64,000 bases of DNA, taken from contig NC_043001.1 of the NCBI RefSeq assembly GCF_006345805.1, positions 100,564,001 through 100,628,000 on the forward strand. Reading direction: 5' to 3'. Positions 1 through 57,362 of the stretch are shown piece after piece. The DNA comes from Octopus sinensis (lineage: Eukaryota). A program made the position numbers and the translations under genes. Each line of letters begins with the position of its first letter. The first letter of the stretch is position 1. The notes beneath the pieces were generated by a model. That model had not been told where the DNA came from, searched no databases, and worked only from the letters and a program-made list of their open reading frames with translations.

Positions 1-300
1 TAATGCTTGCTATGCAGAAGGCGAGGTAGACACGAAGGGAGATGTGATCAGCAGAAAAGCATGTGGTGTAAGAAGTGACAGGTCATTAGTAACCAGAGGA
101 ATGCTATGAAGAACAGAACAGAACTCTGGGATTCGCCTGATGGAATGTAGGTCGGAGAGAGAGCACCATCAATGTAATACTGCAAAAGAGGGGCCTGACT
201 GGAAATTTCTGAATTAAGATGTAGGTAAACAACTTAGCCAGGTTCTCACTGTTCAAAGGCTAATATCAACAATAACACAGCATGCACTGAATTTCCCTGG
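1..300 (-). pseudogene. Highly decayed LINE reverse transcriptase fragment
   Basis: Minus-strand reading across frameshifts gives DGALSPTYIPSGESQSSVL...TNDL...SADH, resembling RT GVPQGSVL...NDL...YADD. Confidence 0.4.
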
Positions 301-492
301 GTCTCGTATCACCCGTACATGGCAGACACAATGATATGCAAACATGCGCAAATATAAGCATGCACACACACACACATACACACACACACACACACACTCA
401 CATCTTTGTGAATAAATTCTTTGATAAGAATGTTTACTCTGAAGTGTTTATGAGGAACTGAAAAATCTGTGGCAATAAAACATGGTTTGCAT

Positions 493-10513: not shown

Positions 10514-12403
10514 TCATCATCATCATCATCATCGTTTAACGTCCGTTCTCCATGCTAGCATGGGTTGGACGGTTCGACCGGGGTTCTGGGAAGCCAGAAG
10601 GCTGCACCAGGCTCCAGTCTAATCTGGCAATGTTTCTACAGCTGGATGCCCTTCCTAACGCCAACCACTCCGTGAGTGTAGTGGGTGCTTTTTACGTGCC
10701 ACCTGCACAGGTGCCAGGCGAGGCTGGCAACGGCCACGGTCAGATTGGTGTATTTTATGTGCCACCGGCACGGAAGCCAGTCGAGGCGGTGCTGGCATCA
10801 GCCACGAGTCGGATAGTGCCTTTTACGTACCACCAGACCAGGGATCCTGGCTGGTTCAATTCGATTTCGATTTCGCTTGCCCCAACATGTCTTCACAAGC
10901 AAAGGGGGTTGGCATGGGTGCCTGTCGTACGGTCGCATTGGAGTATTTTACGTGCCACGGCCATGAGTCGGATAGTGCTTTTTACGTACCACCAGACCAG
11001 GGATCCTGGCTGGTTCAATTCTATTTCGATTTCGCTTGCCCCAACATGTCTTCACAAGCAAAGGGGGTTGGCATGGGTGCCTGTCGTACGGTCGCATTGG
11101 AGTATTTTACGTGCCACGGCCACGAGTCGGATAGTGCTTTTTACGTACCACCAGGCCAGGGATCCTGGCTGGTTCAATTCGGTTTCGCTTGCCCCAACAT
11201 GTCTTCGCAAGCATGGGGGGTTGGCATGGGTGTCTGTCGTCGGATGAGGTTCTATATCGACTTCGCTTGCCTCAACAGGTCTTTGTGTCCAAGGGAGGAA
11301 AGGCATTCATAAGTGGGCTGGGCTCACTTGTCCTGCCTGGTCTTCTCACGTACAGAATATTTCCAAAGGTCTCGGTCGCTGGTCATTTCCTCAGTGAGGC
11401 CTAAAGTTCGAAGGTCGTGCTCCACCACCTCGTCCCAGGTTTTCCTGGGTCTACCTCTTCCACGGGTTCCCTCAACTGCTAGGGATTGGCACTTTCTCAC
11501 ACACCTATCTTCATCCATTCTCGCCACATGACCATACCAGCGCAATCGTCTCTCTTGCACACCACAACTGATGCTTCTTAGGTACAACATTTCTCTCAAG
11601 GTGCTAACGCTCTGTCGAGTATGTACACTGACATTACACATCCATCGGAGCATACTGGCTTCATTCCTCACGAGCTTACGCATGTCCTCAGCAGTCACGG
11701 CCCATGTTTCGCTGCCATGTAGCATGGCTGTTCGTACACACGCATCATACAGTCTGCCTTTTACTCTGAGCGAGAGGCCTTTAGTCACCAGCAGAGGTAA
11801 GAGCTCCCTAAACTTTGCCCAGGCTATTCTTATTCTAGCAGTTACACTTTCAGCGCACCCACCCCCACTACTGACTTGGTCACCTAGATAACGGAAGCTA
11901 TCAACTACTTCTAGTTTTTCCCCCTGGAAAGTGACGGAAGTTGTTTTCTGCAGATTTTCGGAGGTTAATGCTCCCGAGCATCTGCCACATACAAAAACTA
12001 TCTTCCCAGTTAGCCTACCTTTGACATTGCTGCACCTCTTATGTGTCCATAGCTTACACTGGGTACATCTTATAGAGTTTCTACCTACACCTTTTCTACA
12101 GATCGAGCAGGGCCATCTTCCTGAAGATATTTGTGGATTGTCTACCTTCCTACTTATTAGTACTTTGGTTTTAGCTAGGTTGACTCTAAGGCCCCTTGAT
12201 TCTAAACCCTCCTTCCACACCTGGAACTTCTCCTCCAGTTCTGATAGTGACTCAGCAATAAGAGCAAGGTCGTCAGCGTAGAGGAGCTCCCAGGGACAGC
12301 CTGTCTTGAATTCCTCCGTAATTGCCTGGAGTAGTATGATAAATAGGAGGGGGCTGAGTACTGAACCCTGGTGGACCCCAACCTCTACTTTGAATTCTTC
12401 TGT
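10514..12403 (-). mobile_element. Young 5'-truncated RTE-clade LINE with repeat-containing 3' UTR and (GAT)n tail
   Basis: Open RT frame, ~800-bp 3' UTR, tail GTTAAACGATGATGAT. Confidence 0.95.
11324..12403 (-). CDS. RTE reverse transcriptase C-terminal half (no start codon, 5'-truncated) with internal C4HC3 finger
   Basis: Uninterrupted frame: GVHQGSVLSPLLF, LLYADDL, FRYLG, MLHGSETW, RLRWYGHV, RGRGRPRKTW. Confidence 0.9.
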   Translation of the reverse strand, partial: TEEFKVEVGVHQGSVLSPLLFIILLQAITEEFKTGCPWELLYADDLALIAESLSELEEKFQVWKEGLESRGLRVNLAKTKVLISRKVDNPQISSGRWPCSICRKGVGRNSIRCTQCKLWTHKRCSNVKGRLTGKIVFVCGRCSGALTSENLQKTTSVTFQGEKLEVVDSFRYLGDQVSSGGGCAESVTARIRIAWAKFRELLPLLVTKGLSLRVKGRLYDACVRTAMLHGSETWAVTAEDMRKLVRNEASMLRWMCNVSVHTRQSVSTLREMLYLRSISCGVQERRLRWYGHVARMDEDRCVRKCQSLAVEGTRGRGRPRKTWDEVVEHDLRTLGLTEEMTSDRDLWKYSVREKTRQDK

Positions 12404-12545
12404 ATTTACATTATTTACAATTGACGGATATTTGTCCTCATCTTGTTTGTTGTTAACACAATGTTTCAGCTGATATACCCTTCAGCCTTCATCAGGTGTC
12501 TTGGGGAAATTTCAAACCTGGGTTCTCATTCCTAAGGTCTTTTTC
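12404..12545 (-). mobile_element. PLE-like 3' terminal fragment with hammerhead motif
   Basis: acac-CTGATGA-A-GGCTGA..TCAGCT-GAAAC-ATT-gtgt at 12456-12499; stem III reads ACAT rather than palindromic ACGT. Confidence 0.7.
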
Positions 12546-24384: not shown

Positions 24385-24800
24385 TGGTAGGATTGTCATC
24401 AAATCCTCAATGTCAATGAAACTGGCCTGTTCTGGAAAAAAATGTCAACTAGAACTTTTCTGGCAAGAAAAGAGGCAACGATATCAGGTTATAAAGCAGC
24501 CAAGGATAGATTAATACTTCTACTCAAAGCTAATGCCAAAGTTGAATGTAAATTAAAACCGATGCTAATTTATTGTACAATGACCCCAAGAGCATTAAAA
24601 GGCAGTAACAAGCAATCCCTTTCAGTAATTTGGAAACCAAATAAAAGGGCTTGGGTGACAAAGCTGTTGTTTGAAGAATGGTTCAATGTGCATTTTCGTT
24701 CCAAATTTGAAAACTTTTAAAGAAATAATAATAATTTAGATTTTCAAATTATTTTAATTTTAGATAATGCACCTAAGTATCCCACCTCACTTAATGATTT
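24385..24800 (+). mobile_element. Tigger/pogo transposase fragment
   Basis: NVNETGLFWKKM, GYKAAKDRL, NKRAWVT, LILDNAP motifs of the DDE_1 family. Confidence 0.9.
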
Positions 24801-27900: not shown

Positions 27901-28230
27901 TTCATTGATATACATACATACATATATATATACATATATATATATATATATGTGGGTGTGTGTGTGTATACGTATATATGTATGTATATATGTGTATATA
28001 TATATATATATATTATGTGAAATAGAAAGATGAATAATCTTGTAGTAGATTAATCAAAAGTTAAACCGATACCTTAGTAGCAAAAATCACAGCATAAACA
28101 GCACGGTTGGAGGTACAACCATCTGGCGTTGCAACCGTGCGTTGGTGCGGATAATTGAAATTAAAACATTATTGGTGAATTGAAGAAATGGAGCTGAACG
28201 CAGATTGAACACAGAAATCGTTTTATTTCA

Positions 28231-28310
28231 TTCTACACGTGTTTCGAAAGGCACAAATTACCAAAATCCGATTGAATAATGGGACCATATTGTGTCTTTC
28301 TCTTCAGGAA
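28231..28310 (-). ncRNA. Hammerhead ribozyme in left pLTR arm
   Basis: ttc-CTGAAGA-GAAAGACACAA...TTGTGCCTTTC-GAAAC-ACGTGT-A-gaa. Confidence 0.75.
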
Positions 28311-29660
28311 GAAAAAAGGAAATCCGTTGGAAAAACAAAAACAGAACAGAGGCGGAGCAAAAACAAATCGAACTATGCTCCTAAGAGCCCATGGCGAAAC
28401 TGTTTATCAGTGTATGTTGAGAACCGGTGGCTGAAGAATTCAACGGGTCAGGCATCGGTCCAATGCATGGGGTGAGGGTGTATAGATGATGTCTTTGTGA
28501 CCGAGAATGAAGTTCTGACTATTTAAGGAATATTGGATGTTTTATAAGGGGCGAGAAAAAATCTACTTAGAGACGTGTGTGTGTGTATAGTTCTATATGT
28601 GTTGTGTGGCGTAGGGGTAGAAAACATTTTTTGTGTACGTGTGTGCGTTTGATCGTTCGGCTGTCAGTGGCTACTGCCGTGAGAACCGTTGGGTGGCAGA
28701 AAGAAAAAAAATATATTATATTATGTTTTATGTGTGTGTGTGTTCATCTAAGCCTGCTTGTCAAGGAAACCTCAAGATGTCTTTGCGTGTCTCCAACCAT
28801 TACGCAACTTTTCGGGACATGAACAAGCGCCAGACCACGGGACTCAGTAAGCTGATATGGCGACTGAAGGATACGAAATTAAGCTATAGGCTGGAATGGT
28901 CAATTTTGTCGGTGGCCCTCCCATTTGATAGGGGCAGAACAGTGCAACCTTTGTGTCTCCGAACTCTTCCATATTTTGTTGCCAGAGGCCGGATGGTAAC
29001 GGGCTTTTACAGTCGGCTTTTCGATGCCCCCCATTGGCGGCGTTACACTTATCTGGCTTTTAAATAGCGTTTATAAATAATACCGGCACCCATAGCCCTT
29101 GGTAACAAATTCTGAAATAGCCTTTAAGATATCTACGATTAACCACTGCAAGGGGAATTACTCCTGTAAGACAAACGGGGCTTGGTTTTTTCACAGCGGG
29201 GGGTTTCCTTGACAAGGCAGGCTTAGATAACACACACACACATAAAACATAATATATATATATTTTTCTTTCTGCCACCCAACGGTTCTCACGGCAGTAG
29301 CCACTGACAGCCGAACGATCAAACGCACACACGTACACAAAAAATGTTTTCTACCCCTATGCCAACACACACATATATAGAACAGTATACACACACACAC
29401 GTCTCTAAGTAGATTTTTCTCGCCCCTTATAAAACATCCAATATTCCTTAAATAGTCAGACTTCATTCTCGGTCACAAAGTCATCTCTATACACCCTCAC
29501 CCACATGATTGACCGATGCCTGACCCGTTGAATTCTTCAGCCACCGGTTCTCAACATACACTGATAAACAGTTTCGCCATGGGCTCTTAGGAGCATAGTT
29601 CGATTTGTTTTTGCTCCGCCTCTGTTCTGTTTTTGTTTTTCCAACGGATTTCCTTTTTTC

Positions 29661-29739
29661 TTCCTGAAGAAAAGACACAATATGGTCCCATTATTCAATC
29701 GGATTTTGGTAATTTGTGCCTTTCGAAACACGTGTAGAA
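29661..29739 (+). ncRNA. Hammerhead ribozyme in right pLTR arm
   Basis: Same motif, but the first G of stem II is missing; AATAAA follows. Confidence 0.65.
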
Positions 29740-29807
29740 TGAAATAAAACGATTTCTGTTCAATCTGCGTTCAGCTCCATTTCTTCAATTCACCAATAAA
29801 TATGTTT

Positions 29808-29847
<40 letters not shown>

Positions 29848-30030: not shown

Positions 30031-30402
30031 TATTTTATTTATCTAGTTATAGGGATGGAATCTCTAACAGGATGTGACCTCAAAGTCGAAATGAACATTA
30101 TCAAAACACTTTGTGTTTGTGGTAACATTCAACGTCTACGATCTAGATGCAAGCAAGTTCTAGAGAGTAATTCAAAAGTTTTCTATTATGGTCTAAAGAA
30201 AAATGCGTTTACTAAACATCATTTTTTTTAACAGTATTGATATTAACTTGTTTAACTGTGGTTCTATTTTAAAGTGTCCATTCATACCTAAGTTAAAACT
30301 TTACATCATAATTTTTTTTAGAAACTTTTGTTATGTTCAAAGCACCATCTTGATGTAAATACTATTGTAAAAGTGAATGTTGTATTAGAACACAAAATAC
30401 TG

Positions 30403-30837
30403 CAAGAGTGCTTATATGCACCAAAAATAAATATGAGAGTTTCTCTCATGGTAGCTATCACAGTATTTTGTGTTCTAACACAATATCCACTTTTAAGAGG
30501 GATAAATATTAACCTTTTGGTATGAATACTACTTCTGTTGCTAATAATTATTTTTTAATGAGCCCACAGGCTATATGCAACTCTGTGATTCTATGTATTT
30601 CACCAGCCGAGATATCGCTGTTGTCTCTAGCCCCAAGTGTGATAGAGCCAAGAAAGCCTGAAATCACATGATCTGGCAGTGACAGCGGTGATGATGGTGG
30701 ATGATTTATTTCCCAGCTATTGGTGTATACAAGAATGCTTATATGCACCAAAAGCCAATATGAGAGTTTCTCTCATGGCAACTACAGCAGTATTTTCTGT
30801 TCTAATACAACATCCACTTTTAAGCGGGGATAAATAT
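30403..30837. repeat. Diverged direct repeat of ~107 bp (30403-30509, 30730-30837)
   Basis: Shared GCTTATATGCACCAAAA..AATATGAGAGTTTCTCTCATGG..ATCCACTTTTAAG. Confidence 0.85.
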
Positions 30838-32805: not shown

Positions 32806-33500
32806 TTTGACAGTCTACTTTTAATCAACTAGCCCATCCAAAGTTAATGTCTGACAAAATTACATTTCTATGAAAAGTAGTTTTCCTGCTGTGTTGAGTC
32901 CCAATTTCCATTTTGCTTTCTTTTTCTTCTCAAACCAGATATGCCACTTATGTTGTGCTTACTCATTTCCTAGTCCTTAATGACATCAAAGGATTGAAAA
33001 AAAATCCATTGTTCATTATTGTTTTAGTTTCATTTTCACTATAATTCACATAGTATTACAGCTGAGGTATTTAACCCCATCCTATTTTCCTCAGGTCATT
33101 GTCAGCTATAATAAGTATAATCCAAATAACAAACATCATTGGCACTTAGCTATCTAAAGTGTCTCTAAATTACAATTGTGATTGGCTTCAGATAATAGTA
33201 CAAGCATCCCTATGGTAAATAATGTTAGAAAACAAGTTACCACTCTATTTAACAATGTATTTTATCTTTTATCTGTTTTATTCATTGAAGCACAGTCATG
33301 CTGGAGCACTGCCTTTGAAAGATTTGCTCAAAGAAATCCACCCCACTCCTAGTACTTACTTTTTATTAAAGTCTGGTCTTGAAAGTCATCTGAGAGCTTA
33401 TCAATGAAGTAATTGTGGTGTGTGATGAGGTGTGGTGTGTGTGTTGATGGGCCGGTTATCATCTGTTAAGATGGAGCAATCATCATATCATATATATATA

Positions 33501-34035
33501 TATCAATAGTTATCGCCATACTAATATGGCAGTCTATAAATAAGACTAAAGCTGTCGCTGATTAGCTCCAAGAGGCTGTCGCCTCTAGCTAGCTATATGA
33601 CACACGAACCTGCGTCCATTACAAACTTCGAAAAGGGGAGGTCAGCCGCTTCACCTTGCTAGTCAGACATTTGCAGACATGTTTCAGGGTTGTTGCCCTT
33701 TATCAATGCAACGTAGTCAGAACCAGCAGGTGTCGCTACTGACCGTCTGTTCGAAGATTTTATTTACCTAGTTACAGTGGAATACATCCACTTGTTTTCA
33801 ATAATAGAAATATTAAAATTACTAGGTCTCTCTGGAGGAGATTATGGCAGCGTTGCTGGATGTTGATAGTTATCGCCATACTAGTGTGGCAGTCTGTAGA
33901 TGAGACTGGGGCTGTCGCTGATTGGCTCCGGGGGGCCGTCGCCTCTGGCTGGCTATAAGACACATGAACCTGTTCGAAGGTTGTAATGGACGCAGGTTCA
34001 TGTGTCATATAGCTAGCTGGAGGCTAGCTATATGA
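33501..34035 (-). mobile_element. PLE-like terminal repeat structure (360-bp-period direct repeat plus short inverted copy)
   Basis: 33506-33612 is repeated at 33866-33972; inverted copy at 33973-34024; hammerhead inside. Confidence 0.7.
33672..33710 (-). ncRNA. Minimal hammerhead ribozyme with U3-A8 core variant
   Basis: tgca-TTGATAA-AGGG caacaa CCCT-GAAAC-ATGTC-tgca. Confidence 0.65.
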
Positions 34036-34039
34036 TGTA

Positions 34040-34492
34040 TCTTTGTGGTACCAGTGCCGGTGGCACATAAGAAAACCATCCGAACATGGCCGTAGCCAGT
34101 ACCGCATCGACTGGCCTCCGTGCTGTGGGCACGTAACAAACACCATCCGATCGTGGCTGTTCGCCAGCCTCGTCTGGCACCTGTGTCGGTGGCACATAAA
34201 AAACACCATCCGAGCGTGGCCGTCTGCCAGCCTCATCTGGCACCTGTGTCAGTGGCACATAAAAAACACCATCCGAGCGTGGCCGTTCGCCAGCCTCGTC
34301 TGGCACCTGTGTCGGTGGCACATAAAATCACCCACTACACTCTCGGAGTGGTTGGCGTTAGGAAGGGCATCCAGCTGTAGAAACACTGCCATATCTGACT
34401 GGCCTGGTGCAGCCTTTGGGCTCCCCAGACCCCAGTTGAACCGTCCAACCCATGCTAGCATGGAAAGCAGACGTTAAACGATGATGATCATG
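34040..34492 (+). mobile_element. RTE 3' end with ~62-bp tandem units
   Basis: Repeated GTGGCACATAAAAAACACCATCCGA, then the conserved RTE terminus. Confidence 0.9.
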
Positions 34493-34905
34493 ATCTATAT
34501 ATATATATATATATATATATACAGTATATATGTATTAAGTAGTAAGCCACCAATTTAACTCCGACCACTATGTTCCTCTAATGCATACAACCTTAATCTC
34601 CCACCTCACTCCCTTCTCTTTTCTTCTCTTCTACCAAATCCACCTTGCCCCCCCCACTCCTAAAAAGTTAACCTCTTCTTTTCCTTTTCTTCTCATTTTA
34701 CTTCCAAAACTTTGTTTCTTTTCTTCACCAACTCCTGACATTTTCCCCCTCTTCCTTCTTTTCTCTTAACAACCATTTTATTTCTTCCTTCATACGTTTT
34801 CCCCCTTTACTCCATTCTTCCCGCTTCAATCATTTTAAATTATATCTCTGGCAAGTTGAGATTCCTTATTGATAATGTAACCCTTCATATAACTCAGGTA
34901 TATTC

Positions 34906-35306: not shown

Positions 35307-35539
35307 TAAACAAAAGACAGAAGATGGAATATACAAGAATATATTCCATCACTACAGTTGTTTCGATACATCTAACATCAATCCCTCACAGGTTTTGATT
35401 TTTCTCATACCATAATGTTGTGATGGCGTAAAATGTGTACAATTATTGGAGGAATTGACAGTTTTGTATATGCCTACTTCTTGTATATATTGAATCTTCC
35501 CATGGTGTCCAGCCCTAGCTGTCATATATACAAATACAT

Positions 35540-35750
35540 ATATATGCTCATGCAAAGAAAAATCAGAATGTCCATTGATGAACCTCTGCACGAGTACAAA
35601 TCGCGTATATAAATGTAAGTTGCACACAAAAGGAGGGCTGTGTGTCTACACTGGGCAAACAGCTGTTTCATTCAAGAATCGTTATCACAACCATGTCATC
35701 AGCTTCAAGAGAATCAATAAGAGACATTCAACACCTTTGGCTGATTTTGT
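35540..35750 (+). mobile_element. PLE GIY-YIG N-terminal fragment
   Basis: CSCKEKSECPL..C....VYKC....VYTGQT..FKNRYHNH..SF. Confidence 0.85.
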
Positions 35751-35759
35751 GTGTGTGTA

Positions 35760-35800
<41 letters not shown>

Positions 35801-40656: not shown

Positions 40657-41773
40657 CACCCTGGCAGTTGAGGGGACCTGTGGAAGAGGTAGACCCAGGA
40701 AAACCTGGGTCGAGGTGGTGAAGCACGACCTTCGAACTCTAGGTCTCACCAAGGAAATGACCAGAGACCGAGACCTATGGAAGTATGCTGTGCGTGAGAA
40801 GACCCGGCAAGACCAGTGAGAACAATCAAAATCAAATCATATATCAGAAAGCAGGGGTTAAGTGACCCATCTGTTCGTGTCCACTGTCAGCCTCGTCTGG
40901 CACCCGTGCGGTGATACGTAAAAGCACCATTCGCTCATGGCCGTTTGCCAGCTCTGCCTGGCCCCGTGTCGGTGGCACGTAAAAGCACCATCCGTTCGTG
41001 TCCGTTGCCAGCCTCGGCTGGCCCCCGTGCCGGTGACACATAAAAGCACCGTCCATTCGTGGCCGTTTGCCAGCTCTGTCTGGCCCCGTGTCGGTGGCAC
41101 GTAAAAGCACCATCCGTTCGTGTTCGTTTCCAGCCTCGCCTGGCCCCGTGCCGGTGACACATAAAAGCACCGTCCGTTCGTGGCCGTTTGCCAGCTCTGT
41201 CTGGCAACTGTGTCGGTGGGACGTAAAAGCACCATCTGTTCGCGTCCGTTGCCAGCCTCGGCTGGCCCCCGTGCCGGTGACACGTAAAAGCACCATCCGT
41301 TCGTGGCCGTTTGCCAGCTCTGTCTGGCCCCGTGTCGGTGGCACGTAAAAGCACCATCCGTCCGTGTCCGTTGCCAGCCTCGGCTGACCCCCGTGCCAGT
41401 GACACGTAAAAGCACCATCCGTTCGTGGCCGGTTGCCAGCTCTGTCTGGCCCCGTGTTGGTGGCACCTAAAAGCACCATCCGTTCGTGTCCGTTGCCAGC
41501 ATCGCCTGGCCCCGTGCCGGTTACACATAAAAGCACCATCCGTTCGTGGCCGTTCGCCAGCTCTGTCTGGCACCTGTGCAGGTGGCACGTAAAAAACACC
41601 CACTACACTCACGGAGTGGTTGGCGTTAGGAAGGGCATCCAGCCGTAGAAACACTGCCAGATCTGACTGGGCCTGACGAAGCCTTCCAGCTTCACAGACC
41701 CCAGTTGACCCGTCCAACCCATGCTAGCATGGAAAACGGACGTTAAACGATGATGATGATGATGATGATGATG
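40657..41773 (+). mobile_element. RTE 3' end nested in the R4/Dong element, 6-bp TSD ATTCCA
   Basis: GRGRPRKTW...EKTRQDQ stop, UTR array, (GAT)n; ATTCCA at 40651-40656 and 41774-41779. Confidence 0.95.
40857..41600 (+). repeat. Twelve ~61-bp units in strict A/B alternation
   Basis: AAAAGCACC recurs about every 61 bp; A units carry GTGTCCG..GCCTCG and B units GTGGCCG..GCTCTG. Confidence 0.95.
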
Positions 41774-43175
41774 ATTCCATAATGTTGGCTTAGCTTCCAG
41801 TGTATGTAGGTTCCAACTCTGTCATGTCTGTGAATATATTCCTTCTTAGCCAGGACTGGGCAGCCAGAGATAATATGATTTATTGTTTCTTGTCCATCTC
41901 CACATATTCTGCAGTTACTTGTTATATTTCTTTTCATTACATGTTTTTGGTAATTTCTGGTGGGGAGGCTTTGGTCTTGTGTTGCAATTAAAAATCCCTC
42001 TGTTTCTGCTTTGAGTCCTGAGCTTCTCAACCATTGCTGGGATTTTTCTTTGTCTATTTCTTTTGCGTTTAGTTTAGTCCAGTATTTACCATGAAGGGGC
42101 TTTTCTTGTCATCGTTTTATCATGGTTCGTTGCTGTTCTGTTTTTAGTTTGGATTTCATTTCTTTTATAGCTTTTGTTGTTTCTTCATCTTCTTCTTCTT
42201 CTTCTTCATATTTATTAGGTGGTATGATTTCTTGTTTGTATTTGTCAGCTTCCTTAAATACTGAGAACAGTTTTTTGTTTTGCTCGTGTTTTGCCGCTAT
42301 TTGTATCAGTTTTCCTTCCTTCTGAAGTAGATATTTTTGCAGTCCTATGGTGGTTATTTTATAGTAGTTTTCCAGCTGTATAAGGCCTCTACCACCTTCT
42401 ATACGTTGTATATATAGTCTTTCTATGTCAGATTTTGGGTGATGCATCCTAGATCCTGTCATTATTTTTCTTGTTTTCCTATCTATTTTGGTCAGTTCAT
42501 TTAGTGTCCAGTTAAGGATATTGTAGCTGTAACTTATAACTGGGACAGCTAAAGTGTTAATACCTATTATCTTGTTTTTAGCATTGAGCTCTGTTTTTAG
42601 CATTGATCTAACTCGTCTATAATATTCTTTTTTTATTTTCTCTTTCATTTGTGTGTGTTGTGTCTTATCTAGTTCATGGATTCCTAAGTATTTGTAAGTT
42701 TGGCTTTGGTCTAATTCTTTTATTTCATTGGTTTTATCTAGTGTGATATTACTACTCTTAACTAGTTTTCCTCTTTTCATGGTTACTTTGGCGCATTTTT
42801 CTAATCCAAATTTCATATTTATTTCTTTGGTAAATCCATGAACTGTCTTTAATAGTGTTTCCAGCTGTTTGTCATTTGCAGCGTATAGTTTTAGGTCATC
42901 CATTATAAAAGGTGGCTGATCGTTTTGCCGTAACATTTATATCCGCATCCAGTTCTATTTAGCATATCAGATAGAGGTGACAGTGCCAAGCAGAAAAGGA
43001 GTGGAGAGAGCGTGTCTCCCTGGAATATTCCTCTTCTAATGGGGATGGCTTTGGTTTTCATGAGTCCCTCTTTTGTTTGGAGCTGTAGCACTGTTTGCCA
43101 TTTATTCATAGAGTGCCCAATGAATTTTATAATTGTTGGTGCTACTTTGTTAATGGCTAGTGTTTCGAGGACTAT

Positions 43176-43390
43176 CGAGCACTATCTGGAGTATTCGAGC
43201 GGTTCTAAGCAGTGCTGTTTTCTGCAAGTGCTTCACCCCACCCTTATCACAGCCCCTATTTGTTCCACATACTTCTCAAGATTTTTACTCACTGCTCTCA
43301 GGGCTCCAACAATTATTGGTACTACTACCACCTTTTTCATCGACCACAACTGCTTAACTACCCAAGCTAACCTGTCATATCTATCGACTA
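43176..43390 (-). mobile_element. C-terminal coding fragment of a second R4/Dong-like family
   Basis: LWSMKKVVVVPIIVGAL...LQKTALLRTARIL, homologous to but diverged from 40240-40420. Confidence 0.8.
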
Positions 43391-56981: not shown

Positions 56982-57362
56982 GTGAAGTATATTTGCCACT
57001 TAAATGTGGTTAACCACTAAGGGTGGATGCTACTGTAGCTTGTAGCCCCAGGAGAACATCTTTTCCAGCTGGCTATTGACACACTTTCTGTGCCGTATCA
57101 GTATTTGCAAAGGGAAGCCATCCTTCCCATCGTCGACCTGACGTGATACGCATGGACCCGGGTTTCTAGGTATTTACCTGTTGTCAGCGCACGACAATAC
57201 ATTCTAGGTCGACGATGGAAGGATGGCTTCCCTTTGCAAATACTGATTGGGCACAGAAAGTGTGTCAATAGTCAGCCAGAGAAGATGTTCTCCTGGGGCT
57301 ACAAGCTACAGTAGCATCCACCCTTAGTGGTTAGCCACATTTAAGTGGCAAATATACTTCAC
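56982..57362. repeat. Foldback/MITE-like inverted repeat, ~157-bp arms, ~66-bp spacer
   Basis: Arms differ by 7 substitutions and 1 indel (counted by eye). Confidence 0.95.

Follow-up and report, generated by a model that had tools for sequence, protein, structure and literature searches.

A likely inherited ADAR-type A-to-G scar of antisense polarity in a Penelope-type repeat copy of Octopus sinensis

One copy of a dispersed, non-coding repeat in the genome of Octopus sinensis carries a 127-nt tract (33825–33951, plus strand) in which 20 of 38 A residues read G when compared with the family majority. The copy lies in a 64,000-nt stretch of contig NC_043001.1, hereafter the window, and all positions are those of the window. 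The changes belong to a single mismatch class on a single strand: in the zone surrounding the tract (33801–33972), 20 of 59 A are changed to G and none of 47 T is changed to C. The tract is likely an inherited ADAR-type scar of antisense polarity in a Penelope-type copy. In the reading that we prefer, with a probability of about 0.72, an antisense read-through hairpin would have been hyper-edited by ADAR and reverse-transcribed into germline DNA, and a LINE would later have taken away most of the partner arm. What is directly seen is the tract with its polarity, the ancestral base from which it departed, its occurrence in independent data sets and the palindromic build of the family. The initial annotation of this DNA had proposed that a hyper-edited RNA was reverse-transcribed and integrated, a proposal that the analysis supports; we infer both the action of ADAR and the way in which the edits re-entered DNA.

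Extent and polarity of the A>G tract

The repeat copy consists of one full and one partial pass of a 360-bp unit, followed by a short inverted arm (Table 1). In unit coordinates its left arm runs 355→360→1..360→107 and is joined at CCTG to the inverted arm 131→76. We take the minus (hammerhead) strand as the sense of the element.

Table 1. Features of the repeat copy and its immediate surroundings
Feature	Position	Strand	Basis or remark
ATC/TA microsatellite, likely insertion target	33479..33499		Sequence; most copies are TA-flanked
First pass of the 360-bp unit (355–360, then 1–360)	33500..33865	-	Left end lies at a natural terminus of the family
Hammerhead-like motif, minimal type I (putative)	33674..33710	-	Read from sequence
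Zone (unit 296→107), predicted partner of an untruncated right arm	33801..33972	+	All 20 changes inside
A>G hypermutated tract	33825..33951	+	Versus family majority; contigs X1–X4
Second, partial pass (unit 1–107)	33866..33972	-	14/33 A changed
CCTG 4-nt microhomology at the inversion junction 107|131	33969..33972		Sequence
Inverted right arm, surviving 56 nt (unit 131→76)	33969..34024	+	Sequence
Locally templated snap-back insertion where the right arm breaks off	34025..34035	+	Reverse complement
Young LINE, 5′-truncated 3′ end	34036..34494	+	Relatives; 63-bp tandem repeats, GAT tail into TA run

The tract was noticed through a comparison of the two passes. Re-alignment of 33506–33612 with 33866–33972 is gapless and returns the same 17 differences, 14 of them A>G, and the 5′ neighbours of the 14 changed A (T seven times, A five times, C and G once each) were confirmed exactly on recount. 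The three other differences, described as T>C, T>A and C>T, are all seen, but the supposed T>C is a private C>T of the first copy at 33577. The hypermutated stretch, which had been placed at 33866–33972, is real but starts earlier, with six further A>G in the end of the first unit (33825, 33834, 33835, 33855, 33862 and 33865). The second pass has 14 of 33 A changed, against 0 of 33 in the matching 107 nt of the first pass.

Besides the subfamily site 33938, the other change in the tract is a C>T at 33845, at a CpG. Position 33938 was left out of the A>G count because G there is a subfamily state common to 33578. The ends of the tract were picked from the data, and a duplicate of the window locus is counted once in the family columns used for it. 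At the background of young copies (0.0049 per A), the chance of finding 20 of 59 A changed is about 1e-31. The locus thus displays what is expected of an ADAR footprint, a dense cluster of one class (A>G) on one strand and derived from A. APOBEC-edited retroelements are recognized instead by a sense-strand G>A cluster; the changes here are A>G on the plus strand and T>C on the hammerhead strand.

Ancestral state, independent data and privacy

At each of the 14 sites, G occurs in none of 31 long alignments from 30 family loci, and at the two sites covered by the inverted arm (33969–34024, unit 131→76) the ancestral base is still present there, as the initial annotation had observed. Judged from these alignments, the ancestral base at the changed sites is A; the G form is derived and not the ancestral consensus. 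Nor did it prove to be a widespread subfamily: its best other match in the genome has 86% identity (40 of 123 candidates scored).

Contigs bearing the tract were found in four of four runs (X1–X4, from four studies under one organism label) with 0–1 mismatches. They cover 33798–33997 in X1, 33795–33996 in X2 and 33795–33997 in X3, each with no other letters, and 33795–33965 in X4, with one. These are Logan contigs of runs whose kinds are guessed or unrecorded. Since contigs of four runs carry the G tract, it is not an assembly error, and an earlier worry about long-read basecalling was not borne out; since it is present in the data sets of four studies, it is inherited. No contig over 33905–33954 or 34030–34050 was found in X5, X6 or X10, which carry other organism labels, or in X16, guessed to be RNA; contigs show presence, not absence. 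An assembly or base-calling artefact might be suspected, since the locus is part of a hairpin, a setting in which long reads can be wrong, and since the sample of the assembly itself may underlie one of the four runs. The contigs nevertheless come from four studies, no G subfamily was found and the background probability is that given above, and we consider artefact, an old G-rich subfamily and clustered chance mutation to be extremely improbable.

Within the hammerhead repeat family, the event appears to be a singleton as far as the searches reach. A 19-mer from the unit, in unchanged form, is found 564 times in the genome without mismatch, and its doubly changed form occurs at the window locus and in one 29-nt fragment, giving a frequency in the family of one doubly changed arm versus 564 unchanged matches. 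Two further plus-strand patterns, each forcing two changed sites, matched the window locus only, and three patterns designed for the hammerhead strand had no genomic match; each two-site pattern is blind to copies edited at other sites. A 130-nt span in any of 213 other distinct arms holds at most six A>G, a maximum reached in old copies with mixed changes, and the same measure gives 19 at the window locus after variable sites are dropped. A masked all-versus-all scan of 139,225 positions with at least four partners returned two A>G clusters, both of them the window tract, no T>C, no G>A and one C>T cluster; TA/CA microsatellites, a source of artefacts when unmasked, were masked. With no second edited copy found in the family by these searches, the pattern is unreplicated there.

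The 29-nt fragment (L065:1495–1523) comes from the unit, has each of its two TAG sites changed to G, and lies in the loop of an unrelated inverted repeat. It was not counted as a second edited copy.

The repeat family and its insertion anatomy

The repeat unit is 360 nt long, with a GC content of 0.425, and no ORF of at least 120 aa lies over the repeat. The family is dispersed in the genome at 94–96% identity (search of 2.72 Gb; 40 of 2429 candidates scored). A putative minimal type I hammerhead-like motif (33674–33710, minus strand), read by eye from the sequence, has a U3–A8 core and a palindromic CAUG helix III, and the core is identical in 100 of 129 passes. A U3–A8 hammerhead variant has been described in PLEs (PMC4209133). 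Rfam returned no hammerhead: nothing in the window reaches the gathering score, and the hits admitted by E-value are chance hairpins. The unit has features by which retrozymes are recognized, namely a non-coding, low-GC unit of 150–450 nt arranged head to tail, with partial tandems in many loci, and a conserved core that we read as a type I hammerhead. One hammerhead is present at the window locus, whereas a 2026 preprint reserves the term 'active' for retrozymes with at least two consecutive hammerhead-bearing units (bioRxiv 10.64898/2026.07.22.740005).

The insertion has a partial tandem, an adjacent inverted truncated copy, a tail at one end and a microsatellite target, and tandem or inverted, tailed, microsatellite-targeted insertions of this kind have been described for PLEs (PMC8557442). 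Most family copies are flanked by TA runs. Plain head-to-head (+/−) palindromes account for 74 distinct loci, most of them joined by 2–6 nt of microhomology. The outer ends of 215 arms fall at 293–305 (92 arms), 351–3 (86 arms) or elsewhere (37 arms). The two ends of a palindrome are 296 and 355 at 49 of the 74 loci, 296/296 at two and 355/355 at one, and palindromic copies with one end at 355 have the other at 296 in 49 of 62 cases. We infer that reverse transcription is primed by each target end, at an AU-rich site; the plus strand of the left arm would therefore normally be first-strand cDNA.

A 2-nt indel marker is concordant among the passes of one locus at 75 of 82 loci (family G000, L001–L156). 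Taken with the 296/355 pairing, this agreement suggests that priming at the two ends of the target is coordinated and uses a single template, a hint as to how PLEs integrate. Identical inversion junctions also occur at unrelated loci (L007/L120, L075/L130, L053/L057/L026 and L042/L129/L140). L053 and L057 have a common junction, common arm lengths and five private changes; their flanks differ, and they are without an A>G cluster. Such pairs may reflect the re-mobilisation of whole palindromes as units.

Predicted pairing geometry of the hypermutated arm

Because palindromes that end at 355 usually have their other end at 296, the right arm of the window copy likely ran 131→296 before the LINE insertion. 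A lost arm of this extent would likely complement 33801–33972. All 20 changes fall inside this predicted zone, with the partner arm predicted beyond its surviving 56 nt, which hold one change, and with the first 24 nt of the zone unchanged. The zone has 20 of 59 A changed versus 0 of 77 in 33506–33800 (Fisher p = 6e-9), and the identical first-pass sequence outside it is the clean stretch described above. A 127-nt tract placed at random would fall inside the 172-nt zone in 13% of placements. The 14 A in 33801–33824, inside the predicted stem, are all unchanged, which has a probability of about 1e-6 at the rates of the tract. The initial annotation had cautioned that the edited strand is antisense to the hammerhead strand. 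This concern is answered by the family: most copies are palindromic, and the edited zone is the arm that would be paired in a plus-strand read-through hairpin.

Part of the hairpin survives. Positions 33941–33972 form 32 bp with the right arm, comprising 28 Watson–Crick pairs, three G:U pairs and one mismatch. Two of the G:U pairs arise from changes in the left arm and one from a change at 34019, and all three are plus-strand A>G at UAG. The change at 34019, in TAG context, is the only one among the 12 A of the surviving right arm; two of the other 229 passes have it, and the probability that background gives one or more such changes in this arm is 0.06. Close to the loop, the A>G rates are similarly low on both arms.

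Other sources of duplex RNA were considered. Self-folding of the monomer was rejected, as the predicted plus-strand circle leaves 11 of the 20 changed positions without a partner, and editing of the element's own RNA was rejected, as it would yield plus-strand T>C (0 of 47). A duplex between an antisense transcript and sense or circular retrozyme RNA, edited and then patched into the locus, would require neither a hairpin nor a long right arm, and abundant partners are plausible in that other invertebrates express retrozymes at high levels as circular RNAs (PMC7229834). It would leave unexplained both the tract's fit to the arm rule and the absence of changes from the identical first-pass sequence (0/33), and we regard it as very improbable.

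The edited strand is also first-strand cDNA, and explanations at the level of cDNA therefore share its polarity. One of these is misincorporation by the reverse transcriptase, in which target-primed copying of sense RNA from a dATP-poor pool would place G opposite U (dG:rU). Biased dNTP pools lead to hypermutagenesis in vitro. The A>G polarity of first-strand cDNA, a left end at the natural terminus 355 and the frequent change of A in runs (8 of 10 A followed by A) all agree with this explanation. Over its first 325 nt, however, the same arm has none of these changes (0/77 A, and also 0/14), so that the dNTP pool would have to switch within one synthesis, and the A-rich runs in 33801–33824 are unchanged. 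Misincorporation moreover predicts neither the match to the pairing zone nor the 5′ U/A bias described below, and we think it improbable.

Neighbour context

Grouped by 5′ base, the changed A in the tract number 11 of 17 after U, 7 of 11 after A, 1 of 4 after C and 1 of 6 after G. The 5′ preference of ADAR follows the order U>A>C>G (PMC3113232). Changes after U or A (18/28) exceed those after C or G (2/10) with a Fisher p of 0.027 and a rank-permutation p of 0.02; depletion of 5′ G alone has p = 0.08. The ADAR-like 5′ context claimed initially holds for the whole tract but not for the 107 nt on which the claim was made (12/23 versus 2/10, p = 0.13). Background A>G in the family is flat by 5′ base (0.0043–0.0055). 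On the 3′ side, A followed by A is changed in 8 of 10 cases versus 12 of 28 for the others (p = 0.07). A 3′ A is favoured in the hyper-editing motif of invertebrates, and the two animals most heavily hyper-edited in the survey include an octopus species (PMC5625713). The neighbour context is modestly compatible with ADAR.

The same context would be produced if ADAR acted on DNA, deaminating dA of the cDNA in the RNA:DNA hybrid that follows priming or in an R-loop with sense RNA, with dI then fixed by replication. This would cover both the antisense polarity and the neighbour bias, and the tract occupies the terminal part of the arm, in which a hybrid would persist longest. ADARs edit DNA at dA-C mismatches of hybrids in model substrates; the DNA editing described concerns mismatches or mutant enzymes, and retroviral hybrids are an open case (PMC12925331). 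Conversion of 53% of the A in a matched hybrid would, however, be extreme. The hybrid stage is common to every copy of the family, yet one doubly changed arm was found against 564 unchanged matches, and the right-arm change at 34019 has the other polarity. Direct editing of the cDNA thus appears improbable as well.

Proposed mechanism and source copy

In the preferred reading, that of an edited antisense hairpin, a palindrome of the form 355→1..360→107 joined to 131→296 would be transcribed on the plus strand. Its arms 296→107 and 131→296 would pair, and ADAR would edit about half of the paired A. The 3′ end of the hairpin RNA would be the normal priming end of the element, and a retroelement reverse transcriptase would copy inosine as G. 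A LINE would then insert at the flanking TA run, delete most of the right arm and leave a snap-back scar. The unchanged A in 33801–33824 would mean either that pairing began near 33825 or that edited and unedited templates crossed over there.

The LINE piece (34036–34494) is 98–99% identical to its nearest copies over 165 nt, and its relatives extend upstream into the C-terminus of an RT-bearing ORF; it may belong to an RTE-like clade. No A>G excess was found in this piece, where mismatch classes are mixed. The snap-back comprises 13 bp, 34023–34035 being the exact reverse complement of 34005–34017. Pol theta, by extending stem-loops, can make inverted inserts of this kind (PMC11292364).

Two routes could have brought the edited sequence to its present place. 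A new insertion from a source palindrome would be the ordinary behaviour of such elements, and we tentatively put at somewhat under even odds that the window copy was made in this way from a source now lost or unassembled. The alternative is that the edited hairpin RNA of a resident palindrome was reverse-transcribed in place, overwriting about 150 bases in the germline. In-place rewriting would explain why no source copy was found, why clean sequence gives way sharply to edited sequence near 33820 and how the snap-back scar arose, and RNA-templated repair by Pol theta has been reported in human cells (PMC8195485); we hold it to be rather unlikely.

Junction searches of the genome for the source copy gave three other loci, none of them the parent. 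The 107|131 junction recurs in two other loci, of other subfamilies. L062/L174, L063 and L175 were rejected as parents: the junction is the same or nearly so, and subfamily markers or the position of the junction differ. None of 135 other loci has more than 3 of 11 markers of the window locus. The C>T at unit 100 that is common to the second pass and the right arm is uninformative, being a CpG change that arises often, with discordance inside 16 of 71 loci.

Run X5, under a different organism label, has a contig that begins in the flank and continues into the element (33330–33519), with no differing letter. The left junction of the insertion is therefore shared, and an allele comparison is feasible. 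A contig of run X6, also under another organism label, joins 33610 to 33973 near the 107|131 junction at a depth of 25; it could be an unedited allele of the window locus or an L062-like copy.

Other elements in the window

No host gene was found in the window: Pfam, applied to 150 of 182 candidate frames, gave three transposon matches only. The window contains a LINE RT frame with RVT_1 and a PHD-like finger (11324–12481, minus), a second, broken RT with zf-RVT (41746–43181, minus) and a DDE_1 transposase piece (24391–24717, plus). A 610-bp inverted repeat with 96% identity lies at 28162–28771 and 29202–29809. Two frames have no Pfam match: that at 28621–29067, presumably the C-terminus of a PLE ORF by its look, and that at 35494–35760 (plus), which we take to be a fragment like the end of a PLE GIY-YIG endonuclease. 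Short palindromic or direct-plus-inverted repeats of similar anatomy occur at 30368–30828, 56982–57362 and 2368–2744.

Relation to known systems

Among avian retroviruses, the U3 of Rous-associated virus and an inverted repeat of avian leukosis virus are hyper-edited A-to-G (PMC12925331). As in the window, about half of the A become G in a region associated with an inverted repeat and are recorded in DNA through reverse transcription. Unlike these viruses, the window element is endogenous, non-coding and retrozyme-like, and the strand edited is the one antisense to its RNA. APOBEC 'DNA-edited' LTR retrotransposons carry G>A changes in vertebrate genomes and are given as absent from 19 invertebrate genomes (PMC4866542). 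They likewise preserve a strand-biased cluster from a single event, fixed in a genomic copy and polarised by the family consensus. Their changes are G>A, by cytidine deamination of cDNA, whereas those in the window are A>G with a 5′ U/A bias.

Metazoan ADAR hyper-editing of inverted-repeat transcripts (PMC5625713, PMC3113232) shares with the tract its density on one strand, the depletion of 5′ G, the favouring of 3′ A and the link to inverted repeats. It differs in being confined to RNA against an unedited genome, whereas the changes in the window are in the genome itself. Non-LTR retrozymes and minimal-hammerhead PLE repeats (PMC7229834, PMC4209133, PMC8557442, bioRxiv 10.64898/2026.07.22.740005) resemble the window family, with its 360-nt non-coding unit of 42.5% GC, its type I hammerhead-like motif, its partial tandem and inverted copies and its microsatellite targets. 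Unlike long head-to-tail arrays, copies of the window family mostly have about 1.3–1.7 units, with one hammerhead and an inverted arm.

A>G hypermutation in the DNA of avian retroviruses and G>A scars in vertebrate LTR elements are already known. Among the titles and abstract openings covered by the literature search, with most subscription journals outside it, there is no report of ADAR-type clusters fixed in endogenous Penelope-type copies.

Significance

RNA editing is taken as transient. A 2016 review stated that the role of ADAR editing in retrotransposon evolution was not determined (PMC4982230), and one genome screen for deaminase scars sought G>A, using invertebrates as a negative control (PMC4866542). 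Such a tract is seldom seen in the family, and no function is evident for it. What it offers is insight into mechanism, because with antisense polarity and a broken partner arm a single allele comparison can separate insertion from rewriting. An inherited, polarised A>G burst of this kind indicates a likely way for RNA edits to become heritable mutations and leaves a datable record of past editing, and it implies that ADAR activity and read-through transcription occur in germ-line cells.
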